A stretch of DNA of 64,000 bases from an uncultured Gammaproteobacteria bacterium (GTDB taxonomy: Bacteria > Patescibacteriota > Microgenomatia > Daviesbacterales > UBA10151), in contig CAZCNP010000001.1 of the NCBI GenBank assembly GCA_964500725.1, positions 321,520-385,519 on the forward strand, read 5' to 3'. Position 1 is the first letter of the stretch. Each line of letters begins with the position of its first letter. This document shows, piece after piece, positions 10,345-40,543 of this stretch. The translations under genes were made by a program, and so were the position numbers. The notes under the pieces are model-generated. The model saw only the letters and a program-made list of their open reading frames with translations, was not told the DNA's origin and searched no databases.

Positions 10345-10363
10345 TTTGTGATAGTATAAATTT

Positions 10364-16285: not shown

Positions 16286-16362
16286 GTTGACGTGTTTTAT
16301 TATATATGATACTGTAAAAATAATACTGCATATATGCATGCATAGGTGGGTGCATATATGCA
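16286..16362 (+). promoter_or_regulatory. Divergent promoter region with two copies of the palindrome TGCATATATGCA (putative operator) upstream of the giant ORF
   Basis: ttgacg at 16286..16291. Palindromic 12-mers at 16327..16338 and 16351..16362, centres 24 bp apart. Confidence 0.4.
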
Positions 16363-16416
16363 AAGCCGTAAAAGAGCAATTTAGGAATAAAAACGGCAGC
16401 AGACGGACGGATTTAA

Positions 16417-19400
16417 ATGTTAAAAGTTAATTCGTCCAAAAAATCACTTGTTAAAATTGCCCAAGCCTCCAAGTTATTAGGCGTCCACAAAGATACTTTA
16501 AGAAGATGGGAAAAAGCTGGCAAAATTAAAGTAGTCCGAGACCAAAAAGGAGACAGGCTTTATGATGTTTCTAAACTAATTAACTCAGCTCCTGCTTCTC
16601 AAACCTCCAAGGTGCCTACAACTGAGCAGCTGTTAAAGTCAGCTTCCCAACACGCTCAACAATCCACCTTACAACCTCAGCTACCAGCTTTAGATTACTC
16701 TGCTTTGTTAGATCAAACTATATCAAAGGATAACAAGCAAACAGGCAGAAGGTTTTATTTTATGGCTGCAGGCTTCTTCCTGCTCTTAGTGCTGATAGGC
16801 TTAGGTTATATTAGAGTTTTATCTACTCAATCCAAACCACAAATAATTACTTCTTTGGAAAACAAGATACTGGCAGCTATCACCTCTCAACCTTTAGTTA
16901 AGATAAATGCTGATGTCAAAGTAAGAGGGTCATTATCTGTATCAAACGATATCAATGGGCTGGCGATTGCCACTGATTCAGCAGGCTTTACCTTAACTTC
17001 TGAAAATGGCAAATTAACTGTGGTTGGCGATGCCTTGTTAAACCAAGACTTATCTTCCAGCGGCTCCCCTACTTTTTCTTCTCTAAATTTATCCTCAACC
17101 AGCAATCAGCTAGTCTTTCAATCAGGCGGACCAGCAGGCACCTTAACCTGGACTCCAACTGCTGCAAGAACTATTACCCTGCCAGACACCACTACTACTT
17201 TAGTTGGAAAAGATACCACCGATACTTTTACTAACAAATCCATTTCTGGGTCTTCTAACACTTTTACCAATATCCCCAACTCTGCTCTAACAAATAAAAA
17301 AATAACTGTTACAGCTGGAACTAATTTAACCGGCGGAGGAGATGTAGAACTTGGTTCATCAATTACTTTGAGTTTAAAAGAATCCCCTACTTTCTCCGGT
17401 GTAGTCTTACTTTCTGATGGCACAGCTGCTGCCCCAGGCTTAGCTTTCAGCAATGATACTAATACAGGTTTATATAGAATTGGTACAGATAAAATTGCCC
17501 TGATCACAGGAGGATTAGCTACCTCAGGGATTACCATTGATTCTTCTGGCAATTTAGGAATAGCCAATAATTCTCCAGCATATAAATTAGATGTAACAGG
17601 CACTGCCAATATTACCAGCAATACTACTATTGGTGGAACTCTGGGAGTAACAGGTATCTCTACTTTTTCATCAACTATGGGGGTGTCGTCAGGATTATCT
17701 GTAGGTAGTACCTATTCTTCTCTGTCACCACCAACCAGCGGTGCCATTATAGAAGGAAATGTCGGTATCGGAACCAGCGCCCCTGGTTCTTTTGCGTTAA
17801 ATGTAAGCGGCAATACTTACCTTAACGGGAGGCTAGAAACTTCAGGTAATGTTGGTATAGCTAATTCTGCTCCATCTTTTACTTTGGATGTAGTAGGTAC
17901 TGGCAGATTTTCTTCTTTACTTAATGTCTTAGGTAATATAGGTATTGGTACCTCTGGTGCAGCAGGATCAGCCCTGCAGGTTAATGGTGGAGGATTATTT
18001 GGCTGGGGAACAACTTCTACTGCTTTATCTTCTGGAGCTATCTTAGGAGTTAATGGAAATGTAGGAGTTGGGACTACTTCCCCTCTGGCTAACCTGCATG
18101 TTGTTGGACAATGTGTTGTTGGGGAAACAAAACTTAAAAGAAGAAGGAGAAAGAAGGGCAAAAATGGTGAGTGGTCAGATGAATATGAAGATGTAGAGAT
18201 TAAGGATATCAAGGAAGGGGATGAGATACTAACACTTGATGAAAGTACCGGCAGATTTGTACCTGCTAAAGTTAACGCCCTCAAAGATATGGGGATCAAA
18301 GAAATCTTTGAGTTGACCACTGCTACCGGAAAAACCATCAGGACCACCGGCAACCATCCCTACCTGGCACTTGGCGTAGAACACCTAGCCCTCACTAGTC
18401 ATGATTCGGCATCAGGTGTTACCGGTGCTTCCTTGCTCAACTCTACCATTTTATCTCTCACAAGAGGGAACAAAGACCACCGGATCGCCGTCTTTATCGA
18501 TGCGGCAAACCTTGAAAAATCCGTTGAGAAAATAGGCTTCAAAGTCCACTATAAAAACCTTAAACGCCTAATTGCTTCTTTAGGTTCTCTTGACTATATT
18601 GGTTATTTTACAGTAGCTACTTCTTCAGAACAGAATGTGACTCTTCGCCAGTCTCTGCTGCGCTTTGGTTATAACGTGGTTACCAAACCTCTAAAACTTA
18701 TTAAAACCGCCAAAGGCCTGAAACCCAAGGCTGATGTTGATGTAGAGATTACCACCGAAGTAATGGAACGCAAAGATGACTTTGATCTGATGATTCTCTT
18801 TTCAGGAGACAGCGATTTTTACTATCCAATTAAGCTCTTACAAGAAAAGTATGGAAAGAAAGTAATAGTTATCTCTACCAGATACAGTGTCTCCAGGGAA
18901 CTACTCAAAGTTGCTGACCGTTACATTGATATTGCCAAGCTTAAAGGGGAAATTGCCAGAGGGCAAAAAGAAAGCCCGTCTTTTGCAACGGGCGACTCAT
19001 CTTTCGACGAGAGCAATCTTACGACTGCACTTCAAACTATATCAGATATCCTGCCTTTTGTCAAGAATTTGGGCAAATGGACTAAGGTGTCAGGGCTAAA
19101 GACCGGCCAGATGATAGCTGCAGTAGGGAAAGACAACCAACCTCAGTTTGAAAAAATTGCCTCTATTAAGAAGGTTAAACGCGAGCAGGTCTTTGATATA
19201 GAAGTAGAAGGCACCCATAACTTTGTAGGCAATGATATAGTAGCTCATAATACTTTTATTACAGGTAATGTTGGGATTGGGGCTGCTTTTACCACCTCAG
19301 GTATAGTTACCCCCACTAATGGTTTAGCTGTCCAGGGTAATGTAGGTATAGGAACTTCTACCACCAATGCTGCCTTAACAGTAATAGGTGGGATAACAAC

Positions 19401-22400
19401 TACTGGCAATGTTGGTATTTCAAACTCTGCCCCATCATTTACTTTGGATGTAGTAGGCACTGGCAGATTTTCTTCTGATCTAACTGTTTCTGGAACTACC
19501 TTCTCTGCCTCATCAGCTGCTGGATCATTTGATTCCTTAACAGTAGGAGGAGGTTATGGATCAACAGGAGTATCAATCTCCAATGCTGGAGTAATCCAGG
19601 CTAATGGAGCTTTAACTGCTGATGGACTGATTACTGGTTCAACAGGTTTAACTATTACTGGAGGTGTAGTTTCTTTGAATGCTTCCTCAAATAATGCTGT
19701 CAATATAAACACAGGATCATCTACAGGTGCTTTAACATTAGGAGGAGGATCTGGAACTGTGGAAGTGGCTTCCACCAGCTGGGATATTTCTACTTTAGGA
19801 GCTATCTCTGGTGTCACTGGTATTACTACCTCAGGAGGATATACCCAATCTGGTACTTCCGAGAACCTCTTTACTGGTAATGTGGGTATAGGAGTATCTG
19901 CTACAGGAGCTAAACTTTCTTTAAATGGCGGAGCATATATCTGGCCAATTACAACTAATATTGCTGCTCCTAATAACGGATTAGCTGTTTATGGTAGAGT
20001 GGGCATTGGTACTACCTCCCCCGCAACCAATCTCCACTTGATTGATACTTCTGGCAACACTGAGATAGCCAGGTTTACCTCCACGACCAACTCTAAGGAC
20101 TCCTATGTTCAGTTCAATACTACTTCTTCCACTTCTTCTATGGGATTGCAACTTTCTAGCACTGCTGCTAACTCAGTAGGTATGAGAATTGATGGCTCAG
20201 GAAACTTATCTTTCCATACAGGTGCAGCCAGCAGCTCAGTTATGGCTAATAATAATAAAAAGATGACTATTGATACCAATGGGAATGTGGGTATAGGCAG
20301 CAGTGCCAGCAATGGTATTAGCGCAATTCAACTTTTCCAGGTTAATGGAACCTCCTCCTCCCCATTTGTAGTTACTTCAGCTGGTAATGTTGGTATAGCT
20401 AATTCTGCCCCATCTTTTACTTTGGATGTAGTAGGTACTGGCAGGTTTTCTTCTTTACTGAATGTTTTAGGAAATGTGGGGATAGGAACATCAGGAGTAG
20501 CAGGATCAGCCCTGCAGGTTAATGGTGGAGGATTATTTGGCTGGGGAACAACTTCTACTGCTTTATCTTCTGGAGCTATCTTAGGAGTTAATGGAAATGT
20601 AGGAGTTGGGACTACTTCCCCTCTGGCTAACCTGCATGTTGTTGGACAATGTGTTGTTGGGGAAACAAAACTGAAAAGAAGAAGGAGGAAAAAAGGCAAA
20701 AATGGCAAGTGGATTGATGAATGGGAAGAGGTGGAAATCAAGGATATTAAAGAAGGCGATGAGATACTTTCCTTAAACGAGAGTACTGGTGAGTTTATTC
20801 CCAGAAAAGTTAAGGGGCTTTTGGGTATGGGAATGCAGGAGGTGTATGAAATCTTAACCGAAGAAGGTAAAACCATCCAAACCACCAAAAACCATCCTTA
20901 CCTGGTAGACCTCTCTGAAACAGCAGGTACAGCGCTTCATTTTATTCAAAAAGCCACTTTTGAATATAGCGAGAGATTAGGAAAAGAGTTTTATATTGAT
21001 CATCTTGCAGGCAAGAAAATAAAATCAAAAGCATTAAATGACACTATCAACTTTACTCATACAGGCTGGAACCACTTTACAGAAAAAAGCAGATCAATCA
21101 ATGAATTGATTACCAGATTTTTTGCTCTTCCCTATGCTATTACAGTTCTATCTCAAGCCAGCAAAGTAAAAATTCATGAGGAAAGAAAGAAACCAGATAT
21201 GGTAGTGGAATACTGGATTTTTGAAGAAATTATCGAGTATGCGTTAATCCGGGTAGTAATTTCTGCTGTGAATCATGGCCCTAAGTTTTTCTTGTCTTGT
21301 TCCTGGCTGGGGACACAGGCAGAAGGAGGAATTTTAGCCAACAAAAAAGAGCTGTCTCTCTCGCAGGCAGTTACTCCTGGTCGACGTCGGGAACTGGTTA
21401 TCCCTCAGCTCTTTACTAAGCTGTTTATACCAAAAAATGTCAAAAATGTCAAGTGGGTTGAGGTTAGAAACTTAACAGTTGGGGCTAGTATCGCCACTAT
21501 TTCAGGTTGGGAAAAGATAGTTTCCATCAAAAATATGGGTAGAAAATCTACTTTTGATATAGAGGTAGCAGGGACTCATAATTTTCTAGGCAATAATATA
21601 GTTGCCCATAATACTTTCATTACAGGTAATGTTGGTATAGGAGCTGCTTTTACCACCTCAGGTATAGTTACCCCTGCTGATGGTTTAGCAGTCCAGGGCA
21701 ATGTAGGTATAGGGACAACTACTACCAATGCTGCTTTAACAGTGATAGGAGGAATAACCAGTACTGGTAATGTGGGTATTGCTAACTCTGCTCCATCATA
21801 TACTTTGGATGTAATAGGTACTGGCAGATTCTCTTCTACTCTGCTAGCTAATACCTTCTCCTCCTCAGAGGTAACCATCACTGGTGGAACCATCAATAAC
21901 ACCAGTATTGGAGCAACTGTAACCTCAACTGGCGCTTTTACTACTCTTTCTGCCTCTGGAGCTTTGGCTGCCAATGGTGGGATTACCTTTGATAATGCTA
22001 CTGATACATTAGGAGCTTTTACTGCTGCTGGAACTATCAATATGAATGGCAATATTATTACCAATATAGGGGCAACAGATACCAGCTTTGCCACCACTGG
22101 AGCCTTAGCCATTACCTTAGATGGAGCTGATGCCAGTGGCGCTCTCTCTGTTTCCAATGCCTCTCAAACCTCAGATATCTTTGTGGCCAAAGATAACACT
22201 ACTGCTGTGTTTACCATTAAAGATGGAGGCAATGTTGGGATAGGCTTTACCTCTCCTTCAGCTTTGCTTCATCTCAGACAAACAGGATCAGGTAATGCTT
22301 TCTATGTAGAAGATCAGGCAGATGATACTTCTTCTCCTTTTGTGATCAATGCTGATGGTAATGTTGGTATAGCTAACTCTGCTCCATCATATACCTTGGA

Positions 22401-25400
22401 TGTAGTAGGAACTGGAAGAATATCTTCTGATCTGGTAGTAAATGGCACTACTTTCTCTGCCTCATCAGCTGCTGGATCATTTGATTCCTTAACAGTAGGA
22501 GGAGGTTATGGATCAACAGGAGTATCAATCTCCAATGCTGGAGTAATCCAGGCTAATGGAGCTTTAACTGCTGATGGACTGATTACTGGTTCAACAGGTT
22601 TAACTATTACTGGAGGTGTAGTTTCTTTGAATGCTTCCTCAAATAATGCTGTCAATATAAACACAGGATCATCTACAGGTGCTTTAACATTAGGAGGAGG
22701 ATCTGGAACTGTGGAAGTGGCTTCCACCAGCTGGGATATTTCTACTTTAGGAGCTATCTCTGGTGTCACTGGTATTACTACCTCAGGAGGATATACCCAA
22801 TCTGGTACTTCCGAGAACCTCTTTACTGGTAATGTGGGTATAGGAGTATCTGCTACAGGAGCTAAACTAGCCATTAATGGTGGAGCATATATCTGGCCTA
22901 CTACCACAGCTATCTCTGCTCCCAATGATGGGCTGGCTGTATATGGTAATGTTGGTATAGGAACTACTACACCTTTAGCTAACTTACATGTTGTAGGACA
23001 ATGTGTAACTGGAGATACCAGACTGAGAAGAAGGAAGAAAAAGAAGAATGGTGAGTGGTCAGATGAATATGAAGATATAGAGATTAAAGATATCCAAGCA
23101 GGAGACCAGATACTGTCCTTAAATGAAAAGACAGGGCAATTTGAACCTCACACTGTTCTCGCCCTAAAAGATATGGGAATCCACCAAACTTTTGAGTTGA
23201 TTACTGCCTCCAGGAAATCAATCAGAACAACAGCTAATCATCCATACCTTATTAAACAACAAAAAACCCGCCTTTCAGCGAGTTCTTTGACTGAGTTTAA
23301 TGCTGATGCACTATACTCGGGTCTGAGTATCAATACTCTACCACAAAATACCAATAATGTCAAGTCTATGACTGCACGAAGTGGAACTAATGTGGACCTG
23401 ACGGGAATTGAACCCGCAAACCCAGATTTCTCAGACCCGAGCGTACACCAGTACCAGGCCCACATAAAATTATTATCTCATAAATGGATTAAAGTTTCAG
23501 GGCTTAAACCAGGCATGGAAATAGCTACTATTAATGGATGGGAAAAAATAGCAGCTATTAAAAAATTTGCCAGAGAACAGGTTTTTGATATAGAAGTTGA
23601 AGGAACACATAACTTTGTAGGCAATGATATAGTTGCCCATAATACTTTTATTACAGGTAATGTTGGGATTGGGGCTGCTTTTACCACCTCAGGTATAGTT
23701 ACCCCCACTAATGGATTAGCAGTCCAGGGTAATGTTGGTATTGGGACAACTACTACTACTAATGCCTTAACTGTTGCAGGTAATGTTAATACTACTGGTA
23801 ATTTAGGAGTTGGAACATCAGCTACAGGAGGATATAACTTAACAGTACAGGGTACTACCAGTATTACTGGAGCTGCCACTTTTGGATCTACTGGTACCTT
23901 TGCCTCTACCTTAACAGCTTCCAATGGCTTAACTTTAACAACTGGAGCTTTAAATCTAACCTCTACCTCAGGACAGGCTAATCTAGCTCTAACCAATAAC
24001 ACCAACACCTTCACTGTTAATGGATTATTTGGGATAGACACTACCAATAACAGAGTTGGTATTGGAACCACTGCCCCCTCTGCAGCAAGGCTTGAAGTTA
24101 TTGGAGCAGGATCCGTGACAGGACGCACCTTCTGGGTTACTGGATCAAATCTTTCCTCAGGCCTGGCAGTACTGGATAATGGTAACGTGGGTATTGGTAT
24201 TAGTGGACCAACTGCCAGTTTGGATATTGTGGGAACCTCATATACTACTGCCTTAGATCAATCTCAAACAAGTACTAATGGATTTTATAGCTCCAGTATA
24301 CAAGCGCAATCTTTCACCCCTTCTGTTACCGGCCCTTTCATGTATGCTGATATAAAAATCCAATCAGGAGGAGGAGCTCCAGGCAATACCGCTCTTACCC
24401 TCCGCTCAGGAGAAGATGTTTCAGGTACAGTTTTGGCTACTTCAACCAGTGTTGCCAGTTTAGGCAGTGGTTGGTATCGGATTACTTTTGACAATACCCC
24501 TACTTTAACTGCCGGACAGCAATACACCATCCGCTATGATAGAACAAGTACAAACGACTGGGGAATACAAGGTGCTAATCCCTATTCTGGAGGAAGATTC
24601 TATGGCTTAGGAGCTTGGAAAACCGATGATGGTGCCTTTAAAACTTATGTCTATACAACAGATACTACACTGGCAGATGCAGTTAAAATGGCTAATAATT
24701 ACACCTCGGCAAACAGCGGGGCTGTTTTAAACATTACCACAGCTGGAATAGCTGGAAGCTATGCCTTAAGAGTTAACGATGACGGTACATTTACCGATAC
24801 CTCCCCCTTTGTTATTGATACTACTGGTAATGTTGGTATAGCTAACTCTGCTCCATCATATACCTTGGATGTAGTAGGAACTGGAAGAATATCTTCTGAT
24901 CTGGTAGTAAATGGCACTACTTTCTCTGCCTCATCAGCTGCTGGATCATTTGATTCCTTAACAGTAGGAGGAGGTTATGGATCAACAGGAGTATCAATCT
25001 CCAATGCTGGAGTAATCCAGGCTAATGGAGCTTTAACTGCTGATGGACTGATTACTGGTTCAACAGGTTTAACTATTACTGGAGGTGTAGTTTCTTTGAA
25101 TGCTTCCTCAAATAATGCTGTCAATATAAACACAGGATCATCTACAGGTGCTTTAACATTAGGAGGAGGATCTGGAACTGTGGAAGTGGCTTCCACCAGC
25201 TGGGATATTTCTACTTTAGGAGCTATCTCTGGTGTGACTACTTTGAATATGTCAGGCGCCATCACTGCTGCTACTGCCTCCAATACCATCAATGGTTTAA
25301 TTATTAACTCTGGAGCATTATCTGGTGTCACTGGTATTACTACCTCAGGAGGATATACCCAATCTGGTACTTCCGAGAACCTCTTTACTGGTAATGTGGG

Positions 25401-28400: not shown

Positions 28401-31400
28401 TAGAAATAATACCAGCGCCTCTTTCAATAATGCCATGATGATAGATTCAAATGGAAATGTTGGCATTGGCACAACTGGGCCTAATGCTAAACTGGATGTG
28501 ATTGGTGGAATCAGGGTTACTAATACGAGCAGCACCAATGCTCTTGTGTTTGGTCTTGCAAATAGCAATCATTACCTCAAGCTCTACGCAGATACAGACA
28601 CTGGTATCAGCTACATTAAGAACTTATCTAACTATGATATTAGACTGGGACATGCAAGCAGTGATGATGTAATAATCAACTCTGCTGGTAATGTAGGTAT
28701 AGCAAACTCTGCTCCAAGTTATACCCTGGATGTTATAGGTACAGGCAGATTCTCTTCTGACCTTACTGTTGGAGGAAACTTAACTGTCTCTGGCACTACT
28801 TTTTCTGCCTCAGGAGCTGCAGGATCTTTTGATTCTTTAACAGTTGGTGGAGGTTATGGATCAACTGGAGTAACTATTTCCAATGCTGGGGTAATCCAAG
28901 CCAATGGGACTTTAACTGTTGATTCTACCTCTACTTTAACAGGAGCTGTCAGTATTGGAGCTTCCAATGCTGCTTTAACATTTACTGGTACTACTCCATC
29001 AATCACTTCTGGTTCCTCTGTCTTTGGAATCTTTGCTGGGGGGAATGTGGGAATAGGGACCACCTCTACCATGGGGTCAACTTTGAATGTTTCAGGTAAT
29101 CAGGTTATTGGTTCATCTTTCATTGGTGGAGCTGCTCCACAAAATGGATTAGGGATTCAGGGTAATGTTGGTATAGGCACTACTACTGCTACCTCTTATA
29201 ATCTTCAAGTTGTAGGGACTATTGGTTCAACCAGTGGTATTACTATAGATGCTGGAGCAGGCAGCTCTAATGCAACTCTTACTCTCGCAGGAAGAAATTC
29301 TGGGACAGCCCATTCTGCTTCTGTTTTCTCCAATTTTAACGGAGGCCTTAATCTAAAACCAGCCACAACTGGCAGTGATATTAATGTCTATCTTTGGAAT
29401 AATGCCACAGCTTCTACCTCCAATACCATGCCTTTAAACTTTGATTTAAATGCTACCACAGATGGTAAAACTACTTTTGCTCAAATCATGGGTCTTTCTA
29501 CTGATATTACCTCGGGAGCTGCCTCTGGAGCTTTATCTTTCTACACCAAAAATACTGGATCCTTGAAGGAAAGAATGAGGATAGATCTAAACGGTAACGT
29601 TGGTATTGGTACTTCTGCTCCATTTACTGCATTAACAGGAGCCTTCCAAGTAGCACCAGTTTCTGCCCCTGCTGCTTTCTTTGTAGGAAGTACAGGTAAT
29701 GTTGGGATAGGGACTACTGCCCCTACTAACAACTTATCAGTTATAGGCAATGTTAATACCACTGGTAATTTGGGAGTAGGGACATCTGCCACAGGTGGAT
29801 ATAACCTAACAGTAAATGGAACTGCTAGAATCTCAGGAAATATAGGTATAGGTGGTACTGCTACCTTCAGTAATCCAACTATCTTTAACAATGGTATTAC
29901 CAATAATGGAGTCTTTTCTCAGACAGGACAATTCCTAGCAGGAGATGGATCAGCTGCAGCTCCTTCGTATTCCTTCACCAGTTCCACTGGAGCAGGCCTC
30001 TGGTCACCATCTTCTAACAATATTGCCCTAACTACTGGAACTCCTACTACAACTGGTACCATTAAAGGAATCTCTGTTGATTCCTCTGGTAATGTAGGAA
30101 TTGGGACTTCTAATCCAGCAGGGCTTTTGGACATTGTTAAATTAGGAAATGATAACCCAATCTATATAGATCGATATAGTACAAACAATGGCCATGTTCC
30201 CACAATCCAATTCCGCACCAGCCAACAAAACAGTCTAGGCAACACTGCCACCACTATTAGCAACATGTATGGAAGACTTGAATGGTATGGGAATGATGGT
30301 AACGGCTTCCAAAGGGCTGCCTATATTCAAGCACAGCAGGGTTCAAGTACTGCAACTGATGCTGACTTAACAATATCTACAGGTGCAAGCGGAACAATTT
30401 TCATGGAAGGGAGTTCTGGCAATGTTGGTATTAACAATGCTGCTCCTGTGGCTAAATTACATTTAACAGGAGCTGGGATTACCACTGGAGTTAACTTCCT
30501 CTCCACAGGAGCTGGTGGAGGTGGAGGTCTAGTAGGTATTTTAGATAATGGCAATGTTGGAATAGGGACAACTGCACCAGGACAGAAACTGGATGTGGTT
30601 GGTACTATTAAATTTGGTTCCGGGGGTTATTACTCTTTGGGCACAGATCCTACCCGACTGGAAATAAGAAATGCCGCCAACGATTCCATCGCTCTTTATA
30701 CGAACGGTACGCGCGGCTTACTTATGACTGGGTCTCAAAAAGTCACAGTTGGAGGAGATATTTCTGGTGGTAATAGTTTATTCAATGTTCAAGGTGGTAC
30801 AGCAATTGGGTCAAGTTATTACCTGGCGACAGCTCCTACCAACGGCCTATTAGTTGAAGGTAATGTTGGTATTGGTACCACCAGCCCGATCACTAAATTA
30901 GATGTTAGCGGTGGAGTTGGAGACACTTCATCTACTGATCCTCAATTCTCTCTTTCCAGATGGTCTTCAACTGGTAATAACGAAGTAGTCAAATTTAGAT
31001 TAATGGAGCAAGCTTCAGGTGGCACTAACTTTGGGGTATTTACCATCCAAACCAAGAGTACAGCCTCTGCAGCAGAAAGCGATAGTTACTACACTAATGC
31101 TTTCTCAATCACTGCAGCTGGAAATGTTGGTATTGGTACCACTGGACCAGCTGTTAAGCTTGATGTTGTTGGTGGAGGAAACTATGTTGACGGTTTGAGA
31201 TTAAGATATTCTGCCTTAACTAACGGATGGAACTTTGCTCAGGGGACTGGCGGACAACTTTATTTTGGTTATGGCTCTGCTGCTTCACCAACAACCATGA
31301 TGCTGATAGATACCAATGGCAATGTTGGTATTAATAATGCTGCTCCTGTGGCTAAACTTCATTTAACTGGAGCAGGAACAACTACTGGGGTTAATTTCCT

Positions 31401-34371
31401 CTCTACTGGAGCTGGTGGAGGGGGTGGACTGGTAGGGATTTTAGATAATGGTAATGTTGGGATTGGCAACACCGGACCCTCTCAGTTATTCCAAGTAGGA
31501 CCCAATACTTCTGCTGGATCTTCTGCTATGGTATTTACCTCAGGGGGTAACTTAGGTATTGGCACAACTGGACCTGTTGGTAAGTTTGATGTTACTGATA
31601 CCTCCAACACTGGTGCCTCTTTCTCTCTAACAAATAATACTGCCACTACTATTGGAGCTGGAGTAAATACCTTGGGAGTTCTAGACCTCCAATCCACCTC
31701 TTTGACTACTGGTAACTTTATGAATATAGAATTAAATGCCCTATCTTCTGGAAAAGGTATTAATTTAACCTCTACTTCTACTGCATTTTCTACTGGATCT
31801 TTCTTAAACTTAAATTGGTCTCCTACCACCTCTACTACAGCTACAGGTGACCTAGTTTCAATTGGTATTGGAGTATCTGGAAATGTAGGAAACTTACTTA
31901 ATATTACAGATTCAGGTTCTTCTATCTTTGCTGTATCAGAATCCTCATTAACTACATCACTTCCTGCTAACTTTACTGCTGCTGGAGATGTGGCTATAGC
32001 TTATGATATTAACTTTACCAATCCTACTGCCTCATATGTTAAATCTGCTGCCCCACTATACTTACAAGCTGGAGAAACCTTTAACTCCTCAGACCTGACT
32101 TTGAAAACCTTTAACTCTGGTCAGGGAGTGTTTGATTTTGCAGGAGGAGCCAGTTTTATCCAGCCCCAAACCTGGAACTTCCCTGCTACCACTTCTATCA
32201 ATGCCTTAACATTTTCTGATTCAGCAGGCAATGATTTATTAAACCTGGATACTGCCAATACTAGGGTAGGAATAGGCACTTCTAATCCATCAGCTACTTT
32301 CCAGGTCAATGCCACCGGCACTTCTTCTTTTGTGGTTAACTCTTCAGGTAATGTGGGAATTGGAACTTCTACCACAGGTGTACCTTTGACTATCAGAAAC
32401 CTTGGCACCACCTCAGGAACTGCCTTAGTAGTAGATAGCGAAGGCCAGGTTTATAAAACAAGTTCTTCTTTAAGATATAAAAACAACGTTGCCAATTTAA
32501 ATAATAACTTTGCCAAAATTTTACAGGTTGCTCCCAAATCCTTCAATTATAAAGATACAGGAGCTGCTGATATAGGTTATATAGCAGAAGACTTTGATAG
32601 CTTGGGTCTTACAGATTTGGTACTTTATGATAACCAGGGCAGACCTGATAGTATTAAGTACGATCGGGTTGCCCTTTATGCTGTAGAAATATTGAAAAGC
32701 CAGAATCTCACCCTTAACAACTTAACTAATGCCTTATCTGTAATTGGTGGAAATGTAGGCATTGGAACCACCAATCCAACTGCTGCTTTGGATGTAGTTG
32801 GAGATACTAATATTATGGGGGTACTTTCTGTCAAAAACTCCTTGGGACAAAATCTATTCCAGGTAGATGCTTCTGGTTCTGCCAAACTGGCAGGAACTAT
32901 CACAACTGAGGCAGGAGCTTTTGATATAGCAGAAGACTATCAAGCTGAGGCAGGAATAGAAGCTGGAGATGTGGTTGCTATTTCGGAAGACAGCAGCGCT
33001 GATAACCCACAAGTAGAAAAAACCACCTCCTCCTACCAAAACAATGTCTTAGGTATTATTTCTACCAAAGCAGCCCTTAGACTTAGCTCAGGGTCTTCGA
33101 CCACCGACTCTCAACCTATCGCTTTAGTTGGTAGAGTGCCAGTCAAAGTTTCTACAGAAAATGGAGCTATACAAAAGGGAGATTACTTAACATCCTCATC
33201 TATACCAGGTGTTGCTATGAAAGCAACCAGACCAGGACAAGTTATAGGAAAAGCATTAGAATCATATTCAGAGACAGGAGTTGGCAAAATACTTATCTTT
33301 GTAAATATATCCTTTGCTGATCCAGGCAATTTCTTATCTTCCCTATCTTTGGATGATGAAGGCAATTTGATAATTCCTAAGATAAAAACTGCTAGTATTG
33401 CCCTGGATCCAAAAGTTGCCACAACGCAACAATTGGCACTCGACAATGACCAATTAACAAGCGCAGAGACCTTAAATGATAAGTCTCAAATGTCGAATGA
33501 CACTTACTATGATTTAGGCGGCAAGATTGCCTCGCTGGAGGAAAGAATTACTGAGTATGAAGAAAAGATTAAAGACTTAGAAGCTAAGGTAAATAGTGCC
33601 CCTGAGGCTACTTCTTCAGCAGAAATTAAAGATTTGGCTGATGAACTGTTAACCAGCTCAGAAAAATTGGTAGCAGAGGCCACCTCCTCAGCTACACCTT
33701 CGGCTGTCTTAGCAGATGAAACATTAAACTTAACTCCTCCTGAAGTCCTACTTAACCAGGCTTCTGCTGTCTTGACTGATTTGGAAGTTAAATCAGAAGC
33801 CACTGTTTCTGGACAATTAACTGCCTATAACTTAAATGTCCAAGACGGACTCAAATCTTTGGGAACAACCTCTTTGGGTAATACTACTATTGCTGGAGAT
33901 TTGACTGTTGATGGCACATTATCAATAGAAAATGGTAATGAGATTAATGTCTTAGGTACTCTCTACTTGCAAAAATCTATCCTGGCAACTGCTGTAGATA
34001 TCTTCAATGGCTTGGTAACTATAGATAATAAAGGTAATTTAACAGCTCAAACTATTATAGCTGAGGAAATAGTAACCACTAAATTGACAATTAATGCCAA
34101 GCCTAAAGAGGCTAGCTCCTCAGCTACTTTGGGCACTTCTACTAATGCCACCATTGGATCTGGTAAAATCCTTGCTGGAAAGACCAAAGTAGCCATATTT
34201 ACCAACCAAATCACTGAAGCTTCAAAGGTATTTATCACTTTGAAATCATCTAGCTTGGGTCAAACCCCTTATGTTGAAACTACCCTATCAGGCAAAGGCT
34301 TTGTAGTGAGCATTGATCAAACTGTTGGTAAAGATATTGATTTTGACTGGTGGATTATAAGCACACGATGA
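16417..34371 (+). CDS. Giant surface-fibre protein precursor (5,984 aa): N-terminal MerR/excisionase-like HTH, single TM, hundreds of GNVGIG-type fibre repeats, three inteins, internal peptidase-S74 intramolecular-chaperone domain, C-terminal coiled coil
   Basis: Single uninterrupted ORF. N-terminus LVKIAQASKLLGVHKDTLRRWEKAGKIKVVRDQKGDRLYD is an HTH; FYFMAAGFFLLLVLIGLGYI is a TM. Recurring 35-45-aa repeats carry the motif GNVGIG[TA]..P...L.V.G. Intein and S74 signatures are listed separately. Confidence 0.85.
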   Translation: MLKVNSSKKSLVKIAQASKLLGVHKDTLRRWEKAGKIKVVRDQKGDRLYDVSKLINSAPASQTSKVPTTEQLLKSASQHAQQSTLQPQLPALDYSALLDQTISKDNKQTGRRFYFMAAGFFLLLVLIGLGYIRVLSTQSKPQIITSLENKILAAITSQPLVKINADVKVRGSLSVSNDINGLAIATDSAGFTLTSENGKLTVVGDALLNQDLSSSGSPTFSSLNLSSTSNQLVFQSGGPAGTLTWTPTAARTITLPDTTTTLVGKDTTDTFTNKSISGSSNTFTNIPNSALTNKKITVTAGTNLTGGGDVELGSSITLSLKESPTFSGVVLLSDGTAAAPGLAFSNDTNTGLYRIGTDKIALITGGLATSGITIDSSGNLGIANNSPAYKLDVTGTANITSNTTIGGTLGVTGISTFSSTMGVSSGLSVGSTYSSLSPPTSGAIIEGNVGIGTSAPGSFALNVSGNTYLNGRLETSGNVGIANSAPSFTLDVVGTGRFSSLLNVLGNIGIGTSGAAGSALQVNGGGLFGWGTTSTALSSGAILGVNGNVGVGTTSPLANLHVVGQCVVGETKLKRRRRKKGKNGEWSDEYEDVEIKDIKEGDEILTLDESTGRFVPAKVNALKDMGIKEIFELTTATGKTIRTTGNHPYLALGVEHLALTSHDSASGVTGASLLNSTILSLTRGNKDHRIAVFIDAANLEKSVEKIGFKVHYKNLKRLIASLGSLDYIGYFTVATSSEQNVTLRQSLLRFGYNVVTKPLKLIKTAKGLKPKADVDVEITTEVMERKDDFDLMILFSGDSDFYYPIKLLQEKYGKKVIVISTRYSVSRELLKVADRYIDIAKLKGEIARGQKESPSFATGDSSFDESNLTTALQTISDILPFVKNLGKWTKVSGLKTGQMIAAVGKDNQPQFEKIASIKKVKREQVFDIEVEGTHNFVGNDIVAHNTFITGNVGIGAAFTTSGIVTPTNGLAVQGNVGIGTSTTNAALTVIGGITTTGNVGISNSAPSFTLDVVGTGRFSSDLTVSGTTFSASSAAGSFDSLTVGGGYGSTGVSISNAGVIQANGALTADGLITGSTGLTITGGVVSLNASSNNAVNINTGSSTGALTLGGGSGTVEVASTSWDISTLGAISGVTGITTSGGYTQSGTSENLFTGNVGIGVSATGAKLSLNGGAYIWPITTNIAAPNNGLAVYGRVGIGTTSPATNLHLIDTSGNTEIARFTSTTNSKDSYVQFNTTSSTSSMGLQLSSTAANSVGMRIDGSGNLSFHTGAASSSVMANNNKKMTIDTNGNVGIGSSASNGISAIQLFQVNGTSSSPFVVTSAGNVGIANSAPSFTLDVVGTGRFSSLLNVLGNVGIGTSGVAGSALQVNGGGLFGWGTTSTALSSGAILGVNGNVGVGTTSPLANLHVVGQCVVGETKLKRRRRKKGKNGKWIDEWEEVEIKDIKEGDEILSLNESTGEFIPRKVKGLLGMGMQEVYEILTEEGKTIQTTKNHPYLVDLSETAGTALHFIQKATFEYSERLGKEFYIDHLAGKKIKSKALNDTINFTHTGWNHFTEKSRSINELITRFFALPYAITVLSQASKVKIHEERKKPDMVVEYWIFEEIIEYALIRVVISAVNHGPKFFLSCSWLGTQAEGGILANKKELSLSQAVTPGRRRELVIPQLFTKLFIPKNVKNVKWVEVRNLTVGASIATISGWEKIVSIKNMGRKSTFDIEVAGTHNFLGNNIVAHNTFITGNVGIGAAFTTSGIVTPADGLAVQGNVGIGTTTTNAALTVIGGITSTGNVGIANSAPSYTLDVIGTGRFSSTLLANTFSSSEVTITGGTINNTSIGATVTSTGAFTTLSASGALAANGGITFDNATDTLGAFTAAGTINMNGNIITNIGATDTSFATTGALAITLDGADASGALSVSNASQTSDIFVAKDNTTAVFTIKDGGNVGIGFTSPSALLHLRQTGSGNAFYVEDQADDTSSPFVINADGNVGIANSAPSYTLDVVGTGRISSDLVVNGTTFSASSAAGSFDSLTVGGGYGSTGVSISNAGVIQANGALTADGLITGSTGLTITGGVVSLNASSNNAVNINTGSSTGALTLGGGSGTVEVASTSWDISTLGAISGVTGITTSGGYTQSGTSENLFTGNVGIGVSATGAKLAINGGAYIWPTTTAISAPNDGLAVYGNVGIGTTTPLANLHVVGQCVTGDTRLRRRKKKKNGEWSDEYEDIEIKDIQAGDQILSLNEKTGQFEPHTVLALKDMGIHQTFELITASRKSIRTTANHPYLIKQQKTRLSASSLTEFNADALYSGLSINTLPQNTNNVKSMTARSGTNVDLTGIEPANPDFSDPSVHQYQAHIKLLSHKWIKVSGLKPGMEIATINGWEKIAAIKKFAREQVFDIEVEGTHNFVGNDIVAHNTFITGNVGIGAAFTTSGIVTPTNGLAVQGNVGIGTTTTTNALTVAGNVNTTGNLGVGTSATGGYNLTVQGTTSITGAATFGSTGTFASTLTASNGLTLTTGALNLTSTSGQANLALTNNTNTFTVNGLFGIDTTNNRVGIGTTAPSAARLEVIGAGSVTGRTFWVTGSNLSSGLAVLDNGNVGIGISGPTASLDIVGTSYTTALDQSQTSTNGFYSSSIQAQSFTPSVTGPFMYADIKIQSGGGAPGNTALTLRSGEDVSGTVLATSTSVASLGSGWYRITFDNTPTLTAGQQYTIRYDRTSTNDWGIQGANPYSGGRFYGLGAWKTDDGAFKTYVYTTDTTLADAVKMANNYTSANSGAVLNITTAGIAGSYALRVNDDGTFTDTSPFVIDTTGNVGIANSAPSYTLDVVGTGRISSDLVVNGTTFSASSAAGSFDSLTVGGGYGSTGVSISNAGVIQANGALTADGLITGSTGLTITGGVVSLNASSNNAVNINTGSSTGALTLGGGSGTVEVASTSWDISTLGAISGVTTLNMSGAITAATASNTINGLIINSGALSGVTGITTSGGYTQSGTSENLFTGNVGIGVSATGAKLSLNGGAYIWPITTNIAAPDNGLAVYGNVGIGTTTTNAALTVIGGITSTGNVGIANSAPSYTLDVIGTGRFSSTLLANTFSSSDVTITGGTINDTTIGATITSTGAFTTLTSSGNTTLGTGASSVNTIGSTTTPGTLTLHGATTLDNTFTVSGANLTSLGGNLSFTGTAPSLTSGSSVLGIFAGGNVGIGTTSAMASSFNVNGNQVIGSSFIGGAAPTNGLAVQGNVGIGTTTTTNALTVAGNVNTTGNLGVGTSATGGYNLTVQGTTSITGAATFGSTGTFASTLTASNGLTLTTGALNLTSTSGQANLALTNNTNTFTVNGLFGIDTTNNRVGIGTTAPSAARLEVIGAGSVTGRTFWVTGSNLSSGLAVLDNGNVGIGISGPTASLDIVGTSYTTALDQSQTSTNGFYSSSIQAQSFTPSVTGPFMYADIKIQSGGGAPGNTALTLRSGEDVSGTVLATSTSVASLGSGWYRITFDNTPTLTAGQQYTIRYDRTSTNDWGIQGANPYSGGRFYGLGAWKTDDGAFKTYVYTTDTTLADAVKMANNYTSANSGAVLNITTAGIAGSYALRVNDDGTFTDTSPFVIDTTGNVGIANSAPSYTLDVVGTGRISSNLTIGGSLTSTGNLLPSADDTYDLGSSSARWQDLYVGPTSLNLVCTAGECGTARTWNIGVQESSGVAAAQGNLRIGLSSSRDFLNINTSGNLGIGTSNPGNLLTVSGGNIEISSASPQLIWTDTTAGQDAFGAIANSDYLEFMSGGTRNILVLAGATHANAGNVGIGTATPAFKLDVNGGINSGTSAGYSVGSWLGMSYAANGASYNLNLGGINASTWVGLGLFTSGTEKVRIDTNGALYSGNIGTSIANANLFVSGATSGNVGIGTTTPNTRLDVIGNGTYAADFMNGSVGIGTSSPQATLHVASAFTAVSDTGSTGGNLIIQGTDTTRDPTHGAALSFYLPATTAGGNPYVQARIIGAPDNSSNNNTSGRLIFQTRNNTSASFNNAMMIDSNGNVGIGTTGPNAKLDVIGGIRVTNTSSTNALVFGLANSNHYLKLYADTDTGISYIKNLSNYDIRLGHASSDDVIINSAGNVGIANSAPSYTLDVIGTGRFSSDLTVGGNLTVSGTTFSASGAAGSFDSLTVGGGYGSTGVTISNAGVIQANGTLTVDSTSTLTGAVSIGASNAALTFTGTTPSITSGSSVFGIFAGGNVGIGTTSTMGSTLNVSGNQVIGSSFIGGAAPQNGLGIQGNVGIGTTTATSYNLQVVGTIGSTSGITIDAGAGSSNATLTLAGRNSGTAHSASVFSNFNGGLNLKPATTGSDINVYLWNNATASTSNTMPLNFDLNATTDGKTTFAQIMGLSTDITSGAASGALSFYTKNTGSLKERMRIDLNGNVGIGTSAPFTALTGAFQVAPVSAPAAFFVGSTGNVGIGTTAPTNNLSVIGNVNTTGNLGVGTSATGGYNLTVNGTARISGNIGIGGTATFSNPTIFNNGITNNGVFSQTGQFLAGDGSAAAPSYSFTSSTGAGLWSPSSNNIALTTGTPTTTGTIKGISVDSSGNVGIGTSNPAGLLDIVKLGNDNPIYIDRYSTNNGHVPTIQFRTSQQNSLGNTATTISNMYGRLEWYGNDGNGFQRAAYIQAQQGSSTATDADLTISTGASGTIFMEGSSGNVGINNAAPVAKLHLTGAGITTGVNFLSTGAGGGGGLVGILDNGNVGIGTTAPGQKLDVVGTIKFGSGGYYSLGTDPTRLEIRNAANDSIALYTNGTRGLLMTGSQKVTVGGDISGGNSLFNVQGGTAIGSSYYLATAPTNGLLVEGNVGIGTTSPITKLDVSGGVGDTSSTDPQFSLSRWSSTGNNEVVKFRLMEQASGGTNFGVFTIQTKSTASAAESDSYYTNAFSITAAGNVGIGTTGPAVKLDVVGGGNYVDGLRLRYSALTNGWNFAQGTGGQLYFGYGSAASPTTMMLIDTNGNVGINNAAPVAKLHLTGAGTTTGVNFLSTGAGGGGGLVGILDNGNVGIGNTGPSQLFQVGPNTSAGSSAMVFTSGGNLGIGTTGPVGKFDVTDTSNTGASFSLTNNTATTIGAGVNTLGVLDLQSTSLTTGNFMNIELNALSSGKGINLTSTSTAFSTGSFLNLNWSPTTSTTATGDLVSIGIGVSGNVGNLLNITDSGSSIFAVSESSLTTSLPANFTAAGDVAIAYDINFTNPTASYVKSAAPLYLQAGETFNSSDLTLKTFNSGQGVFDFAGGASFIQPQTWNFPATTSINALTFSDSAGNDLLNLDTANTRVGIGTSNPSATFQVNATGTSSFVVNSSGNVGIGTSTTGVPLTIRNLGTTSGTALVVDSEGQVYKTSSSLRYKNNVANLNNNFAKILQVAPKSFNYKDTGAADIGYIAEDFDSLGLTDLVLYDNQGRPDSIKYDRVALYAVEILKSQNLTLNNLTNALSVIGGNVGIGTTNPTAALDVVGDTNIMGVLSVKNSLGQNLFQVDASGSAKLAGTITTEAGAFDIAEDYQAEAGIEAGDVVAISEDSSADNPQVEKTTSSYQNNVLGIISTKAALRLSSGSSTTDSQPIALVGRVPVKVSTENGAIQKGDYLTSSSIPGVAMKATRPGQVIGKALESYSETGVGKILIFVNISFADPGNFLSSLSLDDEGNLIIPKIKTASIALDPKVATTQQLALDNDQLTSAETLNDKSQMSNDTYYDLGGKIASLEERITEYEEKIKDLEAKVNSAPEATSSAEIKDLADELLTSSEKLVAEATSSATPSAVLADETLNLTPPEVLLNQASAVLTDLEVKSEATVSGQLTAYNLNVQDGLKSLGTTSLGNTTIAGDLTVDGTLSIENGNEINVLGTLYLQKSILATAVDIFNGLVTIDNKGNLTAQTIIAEEIVTTKLTINAKPKEASSSATLGTSTNATIGSGKILAGKTKVAIFTNQITEASKVFITLKSSSLGQTPYVETTLSGKGFVVSIDQTVGKDIDFDWWIISTR
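18112..19251 (+). mobile_element. Intein 1 (380 aa) in the giant ORF, carrying an NYN/LabA-like domain in the endonuclease position
   Basis: Starts CVVGETKL (block A). TTGNHPYL is block B (TxxH). VFDIEVEGTHNFVGNDIVAHN is block F/G, ending HN; the +1 residue is T (TFITGNVGIG). In frame: aa 566-945 of the host ORF. Confidence 0.8.
18478..18933 (+). other. NYN (LabA-like, PIN-related) nuclease domain embedded in intein 1
   Basis: IAVFIDAANL ... DVDVEITTEV ... LFSGDSDFYYPIKLLQEKYGKKVIVIS ... ADRYIDI. Clear paralogy to the free-standing NYN protein at 47173..47667 (AFIDASNI ... CDVDLTMDML ... LTGDGDFAPLL...IIIIS ... GDEHIDF). Confidence 0.7.
20650..21612 (+). mobile_element. Intein 2 (321 aa) with an unknown ~200-aa insert domain
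   Basis: CVVGETKLKRRRRKKGKNGKWIDEW...TTKNHPYL ... STFDIEVAGTHNFLGNNIVAHN|TFITGNVGIG; aa 1412-1732. The insert (20905..21500) contains PDMVVEYWIFEEIIEY and IDHLAGKK with no recognisable family. Confidence 0.75.
23002..23643 (+). mobile_element. Intein 3 (214 aa), mini-intein
   Basis: CVTGDTRLRRRKKKKNGEWSDEY...TTANHPYL ... QVFDIEVEGTHNFVGNDIVAHN|TFITGNVGIG; aa 2196-2409. No endonuclease-sized insert. Confidence 0.75.
23393..23461 (-). ncRNA. tRNA-like element antisense to intein 3: canonical acceptor stem, anticodon arm and T-arm, non-canonical D-arm
   Basis: Reverse complement GGGCCTG-GTACTGGTGTACGCT-CGGGT-CTGAGAA-ATCTG-GGTTT-GCGGG-TTCAATT-CCCGT-CAGGTCC-A. 7-bp acceptor with one G-U; T-loop TTCAATT; anticodon loop CTGAGAA. 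The D region can only form GTAC/GTAC with a 4-nt loop. Confidence 0.25.
23702..27270 (+). repeat. Intragenic tandem duplication: 1,196-bp perfect repeat (23702..24897 = 26075..27270), period 2,373 bp
   Basis: Identical nucleotide strings. Antisense ORFs 24285..24530 and 26658..26903 in the ORF track have identical translations. Both copies encode TNGLAVQGNVGIGTTTTTNALTVAGNVNTTG...GTGRISS. Confidence 0.85.
32455..32735 (+). other. Peptidase S74 / intramolecular chaperone auto-processing domain (as in phage endosialidase and tail-fibre C-termini), internal to the giant ORF
   Basis: SSLRYKNNVANLNNNFAKILQVAPKSFNYKDTGAADIGYIAEDFDSLGLTDLVLYDNQGRPDSIKYDRVALYAVEILKS matches the S-x-R-x-K-x-N-[IV]...Y.YK.....IG.IA.[ED] pattern. 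About 550 further residues follow it, including a coiled coil (SLEERITEYEEKIKDLEAKV). Confidence 0.6.
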
Positions 34372-39877: not shown

Positions 39878-39920
39878 TATGGTTCCTCCTTGGATGATGG
39901 CAGGCTGAGTTTACGAAGCC

Positions 39921-40431: not shown

Positions 40432-40543
40432 TGGCCAAATTGATTATGTCAGAATATATAACTATGCCCTAACAGCTGCCCAGGTTAAAGGGATCATGAA
40501 CGAAGGAGCTGTCAGGTTTGGCCCTTCCACCGGTTCGCCATAA
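40431..40543 (+). pseudogene. Orphan 3' fragment of a paralogous LamG gene (encodes NGQIDYVRIYNYALTAAQVKGIMNEGAVRFGPSTGSP*), abutting the hicA stop codon
   Basis: About 80% nucleotide identity to 39763..39877, the 3' end of the intact LamG gene. Its reading frame is intact, but no upstream gene body exists. Confidence 0.7.

Follow-up and report, generated by a model that had tools for sequence, protein, structure and literature searches.

A giant membrane-anchored surface fibre gene of Patescibacteria with a MerR/BldC-like head, three predicted inteins and a candidate autoregulatory promoter

Patescibacteria (the candidate phyla radiation, CPR) account for a large part of bacterial diversity and rely on contact with other cells, and almost nothing is known of how their surface structures are built and controlled. 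Here we describe a very large gene in a 64,000-nucleotide stretch of DNA (assembly GCA_964500725.1, contig CAZCNP010000001.1, positions 321,520 to 385,519), which we call the window. The gene encodes a 5,984-residue precursor that opens with a helix-turn-helix (HTH) domain, passes through a single transmembrane helix into a repetitive fibre and is interrupted three times by inteins. The gene is real, and it codes for a lineage-specific giant surface protein precursor of Daviesbacteria-like Patescibacteria. Its features are as follows.

16417..34371, + strand: precursor open reading frame (ORF), ATG start, 5,984 amino acids (aa), no internal stop; predicted spliced product 5,069 aa
16444..16587, + strand: winged HTH, predicted to be cytoplasmic, MerR/BldC/Xis-like, aa 10-57, lacking the MerR dimerisation helix and effector domain
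16759..16821, + strand: single transmembrane helix or signal anchor, aa ~115-135, with positive charges richer on its N-terminal side
18112..19251, + strand: intein 1, aa 566-945, 380 aa, with Cys1, TxNHPY, FDIEVEGTHNF, VAHN and +1 Thr
18481..18933, + strand: NYN (LabA-like, PIN-fold) nuclease domain, inserted in intein 1 at the usual place of a homing endonuclease
20650..21612, + strand: intein 2, aa 1412-1732, 321 aa, with a differing central insert that is weakly LPD3-like (~20983-21237)
23002..23643, + strand: intein 3, aa 2196-2409, 214 aa, a mini-intein with a short linker
23702-24902 and 26075-27275, + strand: two copies of a 1,201-bp unit, 99.9 % identical, within a series of ~2.4-kb segmental duplications
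32464..32622, + strand: Peptidase_S74 intramolecular-chaperone motif, aa 5350-5402, with SSLRYK and a Ser...Lys spacing of five
32734..34368, + strand: conserved C-terminal module, aa 5440-5984, comprising a conserved domain, a coiled-coil region (~33502-33672) and a terminal 185-aa domain

A first-pass annotation, made from the DNA letters alone, had proposed one uninterrupted frame leading from an excisionase/MerR-like HTH through one transmembrane helix, GNVGIG-type fibre repeats and an S74 module to a coiled coil. The open frame and most of these parts were recovered. The head scores above the Pfam cutoffs (PF00376 at aa 13-49, 43.4 bits against 28.2; PF13411, 29.3 bits against 21.6). Hydropathy across the whole ORF yields a sole segment of transmembrane grade, at aa ~115-135 (Kyte-Doolittle 2.23; the runner-up, 1.44, lies inside intein 2), and aa 111-135 form a helix in the AlphaFold model. 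The Peptidase_S74 domain reaches 29-32.6 bits against a Pfam cutoff of 22 and opens with S-S-L-R-Y-K at aa 5350-5355, whose Ser and Lys form a putative dyad by analogy.

Two of the proposed parts changed in the process. The fibre body does carry 45 GNVG[IV][GAN] motifs and in part matches tail-fibre families of phages (phrog_9942, 1.9e-32; phrog_18345, 6e-25). It is not the continuous fibre that had been proposed: 915 residues belong to three inteins that had been missed, so the ORF encodes a precursor. The coiled coil is represented by weak matches only, found with relaxed Pfam settings at aa ~5696-5752. Beyond such coiled-coil-type noise the relaxed Pfam search of the C-terminal part returned nothing, and a sequence search of the PDB with the C-terminal 684 aa gave no significant match. 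The AlphaFold model of aa 1-400 is confident for the HTH and the transmembrane helix only, with a predicted local distance difference test score (pLDDT) below 50 at the start of the fibre. The whole precursor holds six cysteines, three of which are the Cys1 residues of the inteins. A weak DUF4082-like domain lies in the first 1.2-kb copy (aa ~2653-2710; 19 bits, below cutoff).

The body is highly repetitive. Between 17845 and 27275 of the window it consists of duplicated ~2.4-kb units at spacings of 2,361-2,538 nt, with copies 75-99.9 % identical, and several repeats of 200-600 bp at 88-95 % also lie inside the gene. Four independent short-read assemblies contain the neighbouring glycosyltransferase gene (GT4) followed by the first 249-493 codons at 100 % identity, and each of them breaks within the repeats. 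Six further assemblies match window 27241-44481 at 100 %, which corresponds to the last 2,376 codons plus the downstream genes. The stretch 17896-27240, with the inteins and the 1,201-bp repeat, is found in one assembly only.

One explanation for such a long frame is an assembly artefact, either a chimera of several genes or a repeat expansion made by the assembler. The 1,201-bp repeat at 99.9 %, the shorter repeats, the breakage of every same-population short-read assembly in the repeats and the single assembly that spans the middle would all fit an artefact. We consider it highly improbable all the same, given that no junction closes the frame over its 17,955 nt, with each intein complete and in frame, that independent assemblies contain both ends at 100 % next to the same flanking genes, and that homologues of 2,479-4,057 aa with the same head and tail occur in many genomes. 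Fusion of the HTH to the fibre recurs in 20 of 23 related loci and in 41 further representatives (described below). Only the number of internal units could be wrong: because the middle is without a second assembly and contains a repeat at 99.9 %, the copy number of the ~2.4-kb units is uncertain.

Across homologues of the first 300 aa four elements recur: the HTH, an otherwise hypervariable linker that contains the motif TE[EQ]LL, a transmembrane helix at the same relative place and a conserved start of the fibre. Databases hold them as 'MerR family DNA-binding transcriptional regulator, partial' of Candidatus Daviesbacteria or Patescibacteria group. A genome scan gave 23 loci in different species, with ORFs of 2,479 to more than 3,836 aa (the sequence ended there); the HTH was found by a strict pattern in 20, and the named genomes are Daviesbacteria/Microgenomates. 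In an exhaustive profile search 112 representatives fell below 1e-30, and an HTH followed by a transmembrane helix and then at least 600 residues was present in 41 of 142 newly returned representatives, the longest of 4,057 aa. Many family members have two tandem HTHs. One protein of 623 aa (P0196) has 7-8 tandem HTHs with a period of ~51-64 aa and one transmembrane helix at aa 492-524. Some HTH-headed members have other bodies, with Laminin_G plus Kelch domains or without GNVGIG repeats. Because these bodies differ widely, the HTH-transmembrane head behaves as a module for giant surface proteins. At the other end, the C-terminal 545 aa are 40-51 % identical to the C-termini of full-length homologues at loci L011, L018, L024, L026 and L027. 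These comparisons show a conserved head and tail on either side of a plastic middle. Eight of the loci (L005, L008, L010, L012, L024-L027) come from metagenome-assembled genomes (binchicken co-assemblies) labelled 'uncultured Gammaproteobacteria bacterium' that carry the Daviesbacteria-type gene and synteny; the label is probably a placeholder or an error.

In ~20 loci the giant gene comes immediately after atpC, where the F-type ATP synthase operon ends, and in these related genomes it stands between that operon and a Wzy-like/TPR gene. A phage or prophage origin of the fibre can be ruled out on this position and on the ribosomal and other cellular genes in the window. In the window the corresponding site is empty: within 56727-64000 the ATP synthase operon (56.7-61.9 kb, ending at 61937) is followed by the multi-transmembrane Wzy-like/TPR membrane protein, and the giant gene sits elsewhere, between genes for GT4 and a PDDEXK_3 protein. 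The start of the PDDEXK_3 gene overlaps the giant's stop by ATGA (34368-34371). The end of the PDDEXK_3 gene in turn overlaps the start of a gene for a protein of 1,673-1,683 aa that has seven Laminin_G_3 domains and DUF2341 (both overlaps within 34350-39877, + strand). All three genes appear to be coupled in translation.

Syntenic relatives (L028/L029 and L030, compared with window 15.2-42 kb) have the same flanking genes and remnants only of the giant gene. A 5-nt deletion in one of them cuts a 61-aa HTH from a 441-aa fibre remnant (61 + 40 + 441 aa), and the other keeps a 290-aa remnant with two HTHs plus 184 aa. Both remnant-bearing relatives are without the PDDEXK_3 and Laminin_G genes. 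Judged by these sequences, the locus is a hotspot of gain and loss.

The head matches the MerR and HTH_17 profiles only, and no OmpR/PhoB-type winged helix. Its MerR_1 match ends at profile position 40 of 69, with no dimerisation helix or effector-binding domain. AlphaFold models aa 10-57 as a confident winged HTH (pLDDT ~88), followed by a disordered linker and then the transmembrane helix. Foldseek ranks BldC (6amk/6ama) and the Xis of mycobacteriophage Pukovnik (4j2n) highest, at template modelling scores (TMt) of 0.65-0.75. The BldC match (TMt 0.69-0.71, root-mean-square deviation 1.8-1.9 Å, 30 % identity, 46 residues) has an E-value of only ~2e-3, and we give the BldC/Xis likeness limited weight for that reason. 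The recognition helix, T27 L28 R29 R30 W31 E32, is nearly invariant in homologues; the linker is hypervariable. Within the linker of most homologues T-T-E-[EQ]-L-L is conserved (aa 68-73; 16618-16635). A 60-aa query of the HTH alone found one match in a word-indexed database.

A DNA-binding type of fold need not bind DNA, and the head could instead be a cytoplasmic anchoring or interaction module that contacts a cytoskeletal or secretion partner, or the nucleoid non-specifically. It is a bare winged HTH of 45-50 aa without an effector domain, the conserved TE[EQ]LL hints at a protein contact, and an MreB gene lies near the giant gene in the window and in L030 and L037. The near invariance of T-L-R-R-W-E is what sequence-specific DNA contact predicts, the nearest structures are those of DNA-bound BldC and Xis, and tandem HTH arrays suit repeated DNA sites better than a single protein partner. 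We regard such a purely structural head as unlikely, and the region upstream of the gene bears on the question further.

That region has these features.

16287..16416, + strand: upstream control region with a -35-like TTGACG (16287-16292), palindromes and the invariant GCAGACGGA (16399-16407)
16327-16338 and 16351-16362, + strand: two perfect 12-bp palindromes TGCATATATGCA, read from the sequence
16405..16437, + strand: predicted RNA hairpin round the start codon, GGACGGAUU ... AUG ... AAUUCGUCC

The palindrome TGCATATATGCA occurs twice in the 64 kb, both times upstream of the giant gene, where 0.24 copies are expected. Among orthologues ~110 nt upstream of the gene are conserved despite proteins that are 35-63 % identical. 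Their promoters read, in order, TTGACA, an 18-nt spacer with two AATCTATGTA, TACGAT, AATCTATGCA, 11-13 nt and TGCATAGATT (18 of 19 loci), with AATCTATGCA invariant and TGCATAGATT its inverted copy. More generally, the promoters of the gene family carry phased copies of AATCTATG[CT]A. The 9-mer motif was found 50 times in 3,040 nt of promoters compared to 7 times in 278,800 nt elsewhere in the loci, a ~650-fold enrichment, and site starts are spaced by 10, 22 and 22-23 bp, near whole helical turns. Of 24 HTH-headed genes, 23 have the core TATGCA/TGCATA in the 140 nt upstream, compared to 4.8 % of background windows, and 19 have at least two core copies there, compared to 0.3 % of background. 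These 24 genes span four differing genomic contexts.

The exact TGCATATATGCA was not found upstream of orthologues, which have the related ATCTATGCA array there. The lineage of the window uses the variant ATATATGCA, arranged as the two TGCATATATGCA palindromes, and the window's two syntenic relatives retain ATATATGCA. The head varies along with it: an 'HK' variant of the HTH pairs with ATATATGCA (all three members of the window lineage) and an 'SI' variant with ATCTATGCA.

An inverted pair such as AATCTATGCA/TGCATAGATT might form an RNA hairpin, and we reject this possibility on the pairs themselves: no compensatory change is seen, and in 6 of 10 pairs the only departures are unpaired cells. 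Two motif copies also lie within the untranscribed spacer between -35 and -10. Both observations favour protein-binding sites over an RNA stem. A separate hairpin is predicted further downstream. In minimum free energy folds 19 of 20 loci place the AUG in a loop closed by an 8-10-bp stem, and at least four different compensating sequences form this stem; GCAGACGGA, just 5' of the ATG, pairs with codons 3-6. This start-codon hairpin may explain the conserved N-terminal 'NPS/NSS' codons. A search of the leader against Rfam gave no family match.

The simplest inference is that the head binds its own promoter at these candidate sites, and autoregulation by the head is plausible on the comparative pattern. 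The first-pass annotation had suggested a membrane-bound regulator. The conserved fusion supports the architecture that it proposed, and the phased promoter motif and the BldC-like fold fit a regulatory role in DNA binding; binding itself is putative. If the head were a structural module, the promoter motif would have to belong to another regulator. A candidate exists in the window, where a 78-aa ORF (13541-13777, + strand) encodes a BldC-sized protein with an HTH_17/MerR-type HTH (44 bits). It is 35 % identical to the giant's head over 40 aa and keeps its position in the syntenic relative L030. This small protein could be the real binder, or it could compete with the head for the same DNA sites. 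The motif, on the other hand, accompanies the giant gene through all four genomic contexts, which speaks against a head without a regulatory role.

Alternatively, the head may be a transcription factor that is released by processing, the second option of the first-pass annotation. Here the signal would be engagement of or damage to the fibre, leading to proteolysis in or beside the membrane and freeing the HTH for genes elsewhere. The topology and the long disordered linker between HTH and transmembrane helix are compatible with such release, and one relative encodes the HTH separately (61 aa). No conserved protease gene adjoins the giant gene, its conserved neighbours being ATP synthase genes, and the linker is hypervariable except for TE[EQ]LL. 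Moreover, the motif is almost confined to the gene's own promoter in the ~20 kb examined per genome, which points to autoregulation rather than to a regulon. We judge a released factor very unlikely and return to the head as a candidate regulator of its own gene.

The second unusual property of the gene lies in its inteins. PF14890 (Intein_splicing) scores 69.1, 58.9 and 56.3 bits for inteins 1, 2 and 3 against a cutoff of 35.8. All three occupy one site of the repeat, ...LANLHVVGQ/C...VAHN/TFITGNVGIG (slashes mark the junctions), and have the common form C-V-x-G-[ED]-T ... T-x-N-H-P-Y ... FDIEV.GTHNF.GN.IVAHN/TFITGNVGIG. In the alignment Cys1, the block-B Thr/His, the terminal His-Asn and the +1 Thr are present in 3 of 3. 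The GNVG motifs that flank the inteins are 403, 344 and 237 residues apart; subtracting 380, 321 and 214 leaves 23 in each case, and 23 is also the spacing of the intact neighbouring repeats. The predicted junction peptide after splicing is LANLHVVGQTFITGNVGIG. By sequence the nearest solved relatives are DnaB mini-inteins in the PDB. Modelled by AlphaFold (mean pLDDT 75.6, with the Hint halves above 85), intein 1 matches the NpuDnaB, Ssp DnaB and Mtu RecA inteins at TMt 0.83-0.86 in Foldseek. On these features the inteins are complete in everything a sequence needs for splicing.

What differs among the three is the centre. In Pfam a central LAGLIDADG or HNH endonuclease domain is absent from all of them, and the centres are an NYN domain, a weakly LPD3-like insert or nothing. 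The NYN domain (PF01936, 84.6 bits) matches 2qip by sequence and fold (TMt 0.78) and the NYN domain of MARF1 (TMt 0.74). Its residues D130, N133, D210, S231-G232-D233 and D235 (intein numbering) are invariant among intein-borne and free-standing homologues, and this invariance of the catalytic residues suggests a candidate active nuclease. The insert of intein 2 scores 24-25.5 bits for LPD3, below the cutoff of 27, and intein 2 also has a weak PT-HINT match (27.2 bits against a cutoff of 27.7). An intein at locus L005 shares this insert type and is 36 % identical to intein 2 over the full length. Directly after block A runs KRRRRKKGK, with 8-9 Lys/Arg (18136-18162; the same place in inteins 2 and 3). 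This polybasic run is conserved across the intein family, is a confident beta-hairpin in the model and is unusual for inteins.

A search with intein 1 returned 132 proteins, nearly all of Patescibacteria. PF01936 and PF14890 are combined in at least 20 clusters. Most members lie on contigs of 1-4 kb, which is expected because intein elements within repeats break assemblies. N-exteins end LHV.GQ-like in 29 of 35 readable cases; the +1 Thr is present in 36 of 36 readable C-exteins, usually as T[YF][IL].GN.G. Other hosts carry Laminin_G_3, FGE-sulfatase, DUF5011 and S74 domains. Among the 23 orthologous loci of the giant gene only three have an intein; the sporadic distribution suggests that the family is probably mobile, and since most orthologues lack inteins they are not needed for fibre function. 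The flanks and ends of the three inteins are co-similar and their central domains differ. The similarity of flanks and ends favours in-place duplication or gene conversion over separate homing events; the differing centres count against it. One duplicated unit (aa ~3015-3045) is without the intein and without one flanking repeat, which indicates that recombination between repeats can remove an intein and presumably copy one.

It is conceivable that these elements have been exapted as release modules that splice or cleave outside the cell and shed NYN or LPD3-like effectors against a host or competitors, on the model of the PT-HINT domains of polymorphic toxins and of bacterial intein-like (BIL) domains. 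They do lie within the exported part of a surface protein, they show weak PT-HINT matches, and their central domains appear swappable (NYN, LPD3-like or none). LPD3 is named in its Pfam description after large polyvalent proteins. Such proteins belong to conflict systems of phages and conjugative elements. BIL domains, moreover, occupy variable regions of bacterial proteins (PMC5874633). What makes this scenario quite unlikely in our view is that the residues for full splicing are kept, including the +1 Thr in every readable case, where self-cleavage would not need them. In sequence and fold they come closest to the DnaB and RecA inteins, which do splice; an immunity-like gene is not evident, and most orthologues have no intein at all.

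Taken together, the observations make it probable, in our assessment, that the gene encodes an HTH-headed, membrane-anchored giant fibre with three self-splicing mobile inteins, whose head autoregulates its own promoter. The transmembrane helix would act as a signal anchor that keeps the HTH in the cytoplasm and places the remainder outside the cell, an orientation (N-in/C-out) that we infer from the charge distribution. The S74 module probably aids trimerisation into an attachment fibre; we propose both the trimer and the attachment role from the analogy of phage fibres and of giant surface proteins in CPR bacteria. Through Cys1 to +1 Thr chemistry the inteins would excise themselves and restore the normal 23-residue repeat. 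Their family appears specialised on the repeat motif ...LHV.GQ/T[YF]..GN.G, with NYN as the most likely mobility nuclease, and within a repeat protein they may also be copied or lost via recombination between flanking repeats. The cytoplasmic head would bind the phased AATCTATG[CT]A or TGCATATATGCA sites of its own promoter, several heads probably side by side like BldC, and transcription of a very long gene could in this way be coupled to the amount of product or to its state of membrane insertion.

A number of observations weigh against this explanation or parts of it. Two close relatives hold a split or truncated gene, so the giant is dispensable in some strains. The fold match of the head is marginal, the covariation of HTH and motif amounts to a single evolutionary event, the promoter in the window is without the spacer copies of the motif, and another factor, for example the 78-aa BldC-like protein, could bind the motif. 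The fibre part gives a low-confidence fold as a monomer, and ~580 residues conserved among orthologues follow the S74 domain; we know of no characterised S74 chaperone with so long a downstream part. The middle of the gene depends on its single assembly. Allowing up to 5 mismatches, we found no copy of the joined extein DNA in the window, and JGI (Joint Genome Institute) metagenome contigs contained no uninterrupted HVVGQ-T[FY][ILM]xGNVG coding sequence. Finally, the inteins and their nuclease lie in an exported segment and homing needs a cytoplasmic nuclease, which is topologically awkward. It is a speculation that the polybasic hairpin (RRRRKKGK) delays translocation until splicing has taken place.

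We also hypothesize, with more doubt than confidence, a linked and more specific pair of ideas: that the head autoregulates in cis, and that the inteins form a new repeat-targeting class with NYN as mobility enzyme. For the first, the head would be translated before the rest of the ~18-kb message, and the promoter repeats would be occupied at the membrane first by the nascent BldC-like head and then by the heads of assembled fibres, probably trimers, and synthesis and insertion would gate transcription. For the second, the inteins would be directed at a structural repeat of surface proteins instead of at a conserved site in an enzyme, and the polybasic hairpin might hold the segment in the cytoplasm up to the point of splicing. 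If true, the first would be a new kind of membrane-tethered autoregulatory circuit, common to a family of giant Patescibacteria surface proteins.

The neighbours of the gene had been taken in the first-pass annotation as a sign that the fibre is glycosylated. The neighbours are real (a WecG/TagA glycosyltransferase, GT4, a GPI-type cupin and Wzy_C), but GT4, WecG and the cupin were absent within 10 kb in all 23 related loci. The glycosyltransferase neighbours persist in the close syntenic relatives of the window alone, and they do so even beside a decayed fibre gene. As they are not conserved in the related loci, glycosylation is weakly founded, and we do not retain it. The regions 645-12313 and 41156-44886 are dense in surface and envelope genes, with a dockerin, Wzy_C, a 1,838-aa DUF5667 protein, a sortase and MreB, together with a membrane-anchored trypsin-like protease and a PEGA protein. 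These surrounding surface proteins use ordinary signal peptides or anchors, and the HTH head is found on the giant only.

Giant HTH-headed membrane-anchored fibres apparently form a conserved, recurrent and undescribed family, although public databases already hold its sequences under generic names. In the literature we found, three combinations appear undescribed: giant membrane-anchored fibres that bear a BldC-like head and have a conserved candidate operator, a putative intein family whose specialised target is a structural repeat in surface proteins, and NYN as an intein-borne nuclease. Our literature searches, in which subscription journals were thinly covered, gave no report of an HTH head on giant CPR surface proteins and nothing relevant on NYN-bearing inteins or on inteins in CPR surface proteins. 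A DNA-binding-type domain in the first 60 residues of a very large surface protein, together with a conserved candidate operator of its gene, offers a model for how production of such proteins could be regulated. Inteins in an exported structural repeat widen the known intein niche, add a candidate new mobility nuclease and raise the question of where an intein in a secreted protein splices. The family also offers compact natural mini-inteins with a +1 Thr.

Each component has a known relative, among BldC and Xis, the ToxR and RodZ topologies, S74 fibres, class-1 inteins, BIL/PT-HINT domains and NYN nucleases. A parallel among CPR bacteria is Vampirococcus lugosii, whose giant surface proteins of 1,392-4,163 aa are membrane-associated and thought to mediate host attachment (PMC8080830). 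The terms 'intein' and 'fiber' were absent from that paper in a term search.

With the limited weight that the marginal fold match allows, the head resembles BldC of Streptomyces and excisionase-type proteins such as Pukovnik Xis, MerR-like winged HTH proteins that have neither a coiled-coil dimerisation helix nor an effector domain. BldC itself is monomeric and occupies 9-bp direct repeats as cooperative multimers arranged head-to-tail (PMC5859096), and these repeats resemble the phased 9-10-bp direct repeats that we consider candidate sites in the promoters of the gene family. However, BldC is a free cytoplasmic protein of 68 residues, whereas here the domain forms the N-terminus of a membrane-anchored protein of 2,500-6,000 aa. 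In the gene family the domain sometimes occurs in 2 to 7-8 tandem copies.

ToxR, CadC and TcpP have an N-terminal cytoplasmic DNA-binding domain, one transmembrane helix and an extracytoplasmic C-terminal part. The giant would share this layout, with a DNA-binding-type head, one transmembrane helix and, on the predicted topology, a part outside the cell. They differ in that the ToxR group combines an OmpR-type winged HTH with a small periplasmic sensor, and the giant a MerR/BldC-type HTH with a fibre of several thousand residues and a phage-type chaperone. The small protein RodZ has a similar layout, with an XRE-type cytoplasmic HTH that binds MreB, a single transmembrane helix and an extracytoplasmic C-terminal domain, and its case shows that DNA binding is not required of such an HTH. 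With S74 phage tail fibres and tailspikes of the endosialidase and T5 pb1 type the giant shares PHROG matches, GNVGIG-type repeats and an S74 domain with a Ser...Lys pair. In the phage proteins S74 ends the protein, whereas the giant continues for ~580 conserved residues, has an N-terminal membrane anchor and belongs to a chromosomal, atpC-linked family.

The inteins share with canonical class-1 inteins, such as the DnaB and RecA mini-inteins, the Hint fold, Cys1, TxxH, the terminal HN and a +1 nucleophile. In contrast to those, the host here is a non-enzymatic repetitive surface protein and the insertion site a structural repeat, a polybasic hairpin RRRRKKGK is present, and the centre is NYN or LPD3-like instead of LAGLIDADG or HNH. 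BIL domains occur in variable regions of non-conserved bacterial proteins, sometimes several per protein; A-type BILs often lack a C-flanking nucleophile, and BILs mainly self-cleave (PMC5874633). BIL and PT-HINT domains are like the inteins described here in being Hint domains of variable, secreted or surface proteins, as the weak PT-HINT scores reflect. Unlike A-type BILs, the inteins of the giant fibre family always have the +1 Thr, and their best Pfam model is Intein_splicing, above its cutoff.

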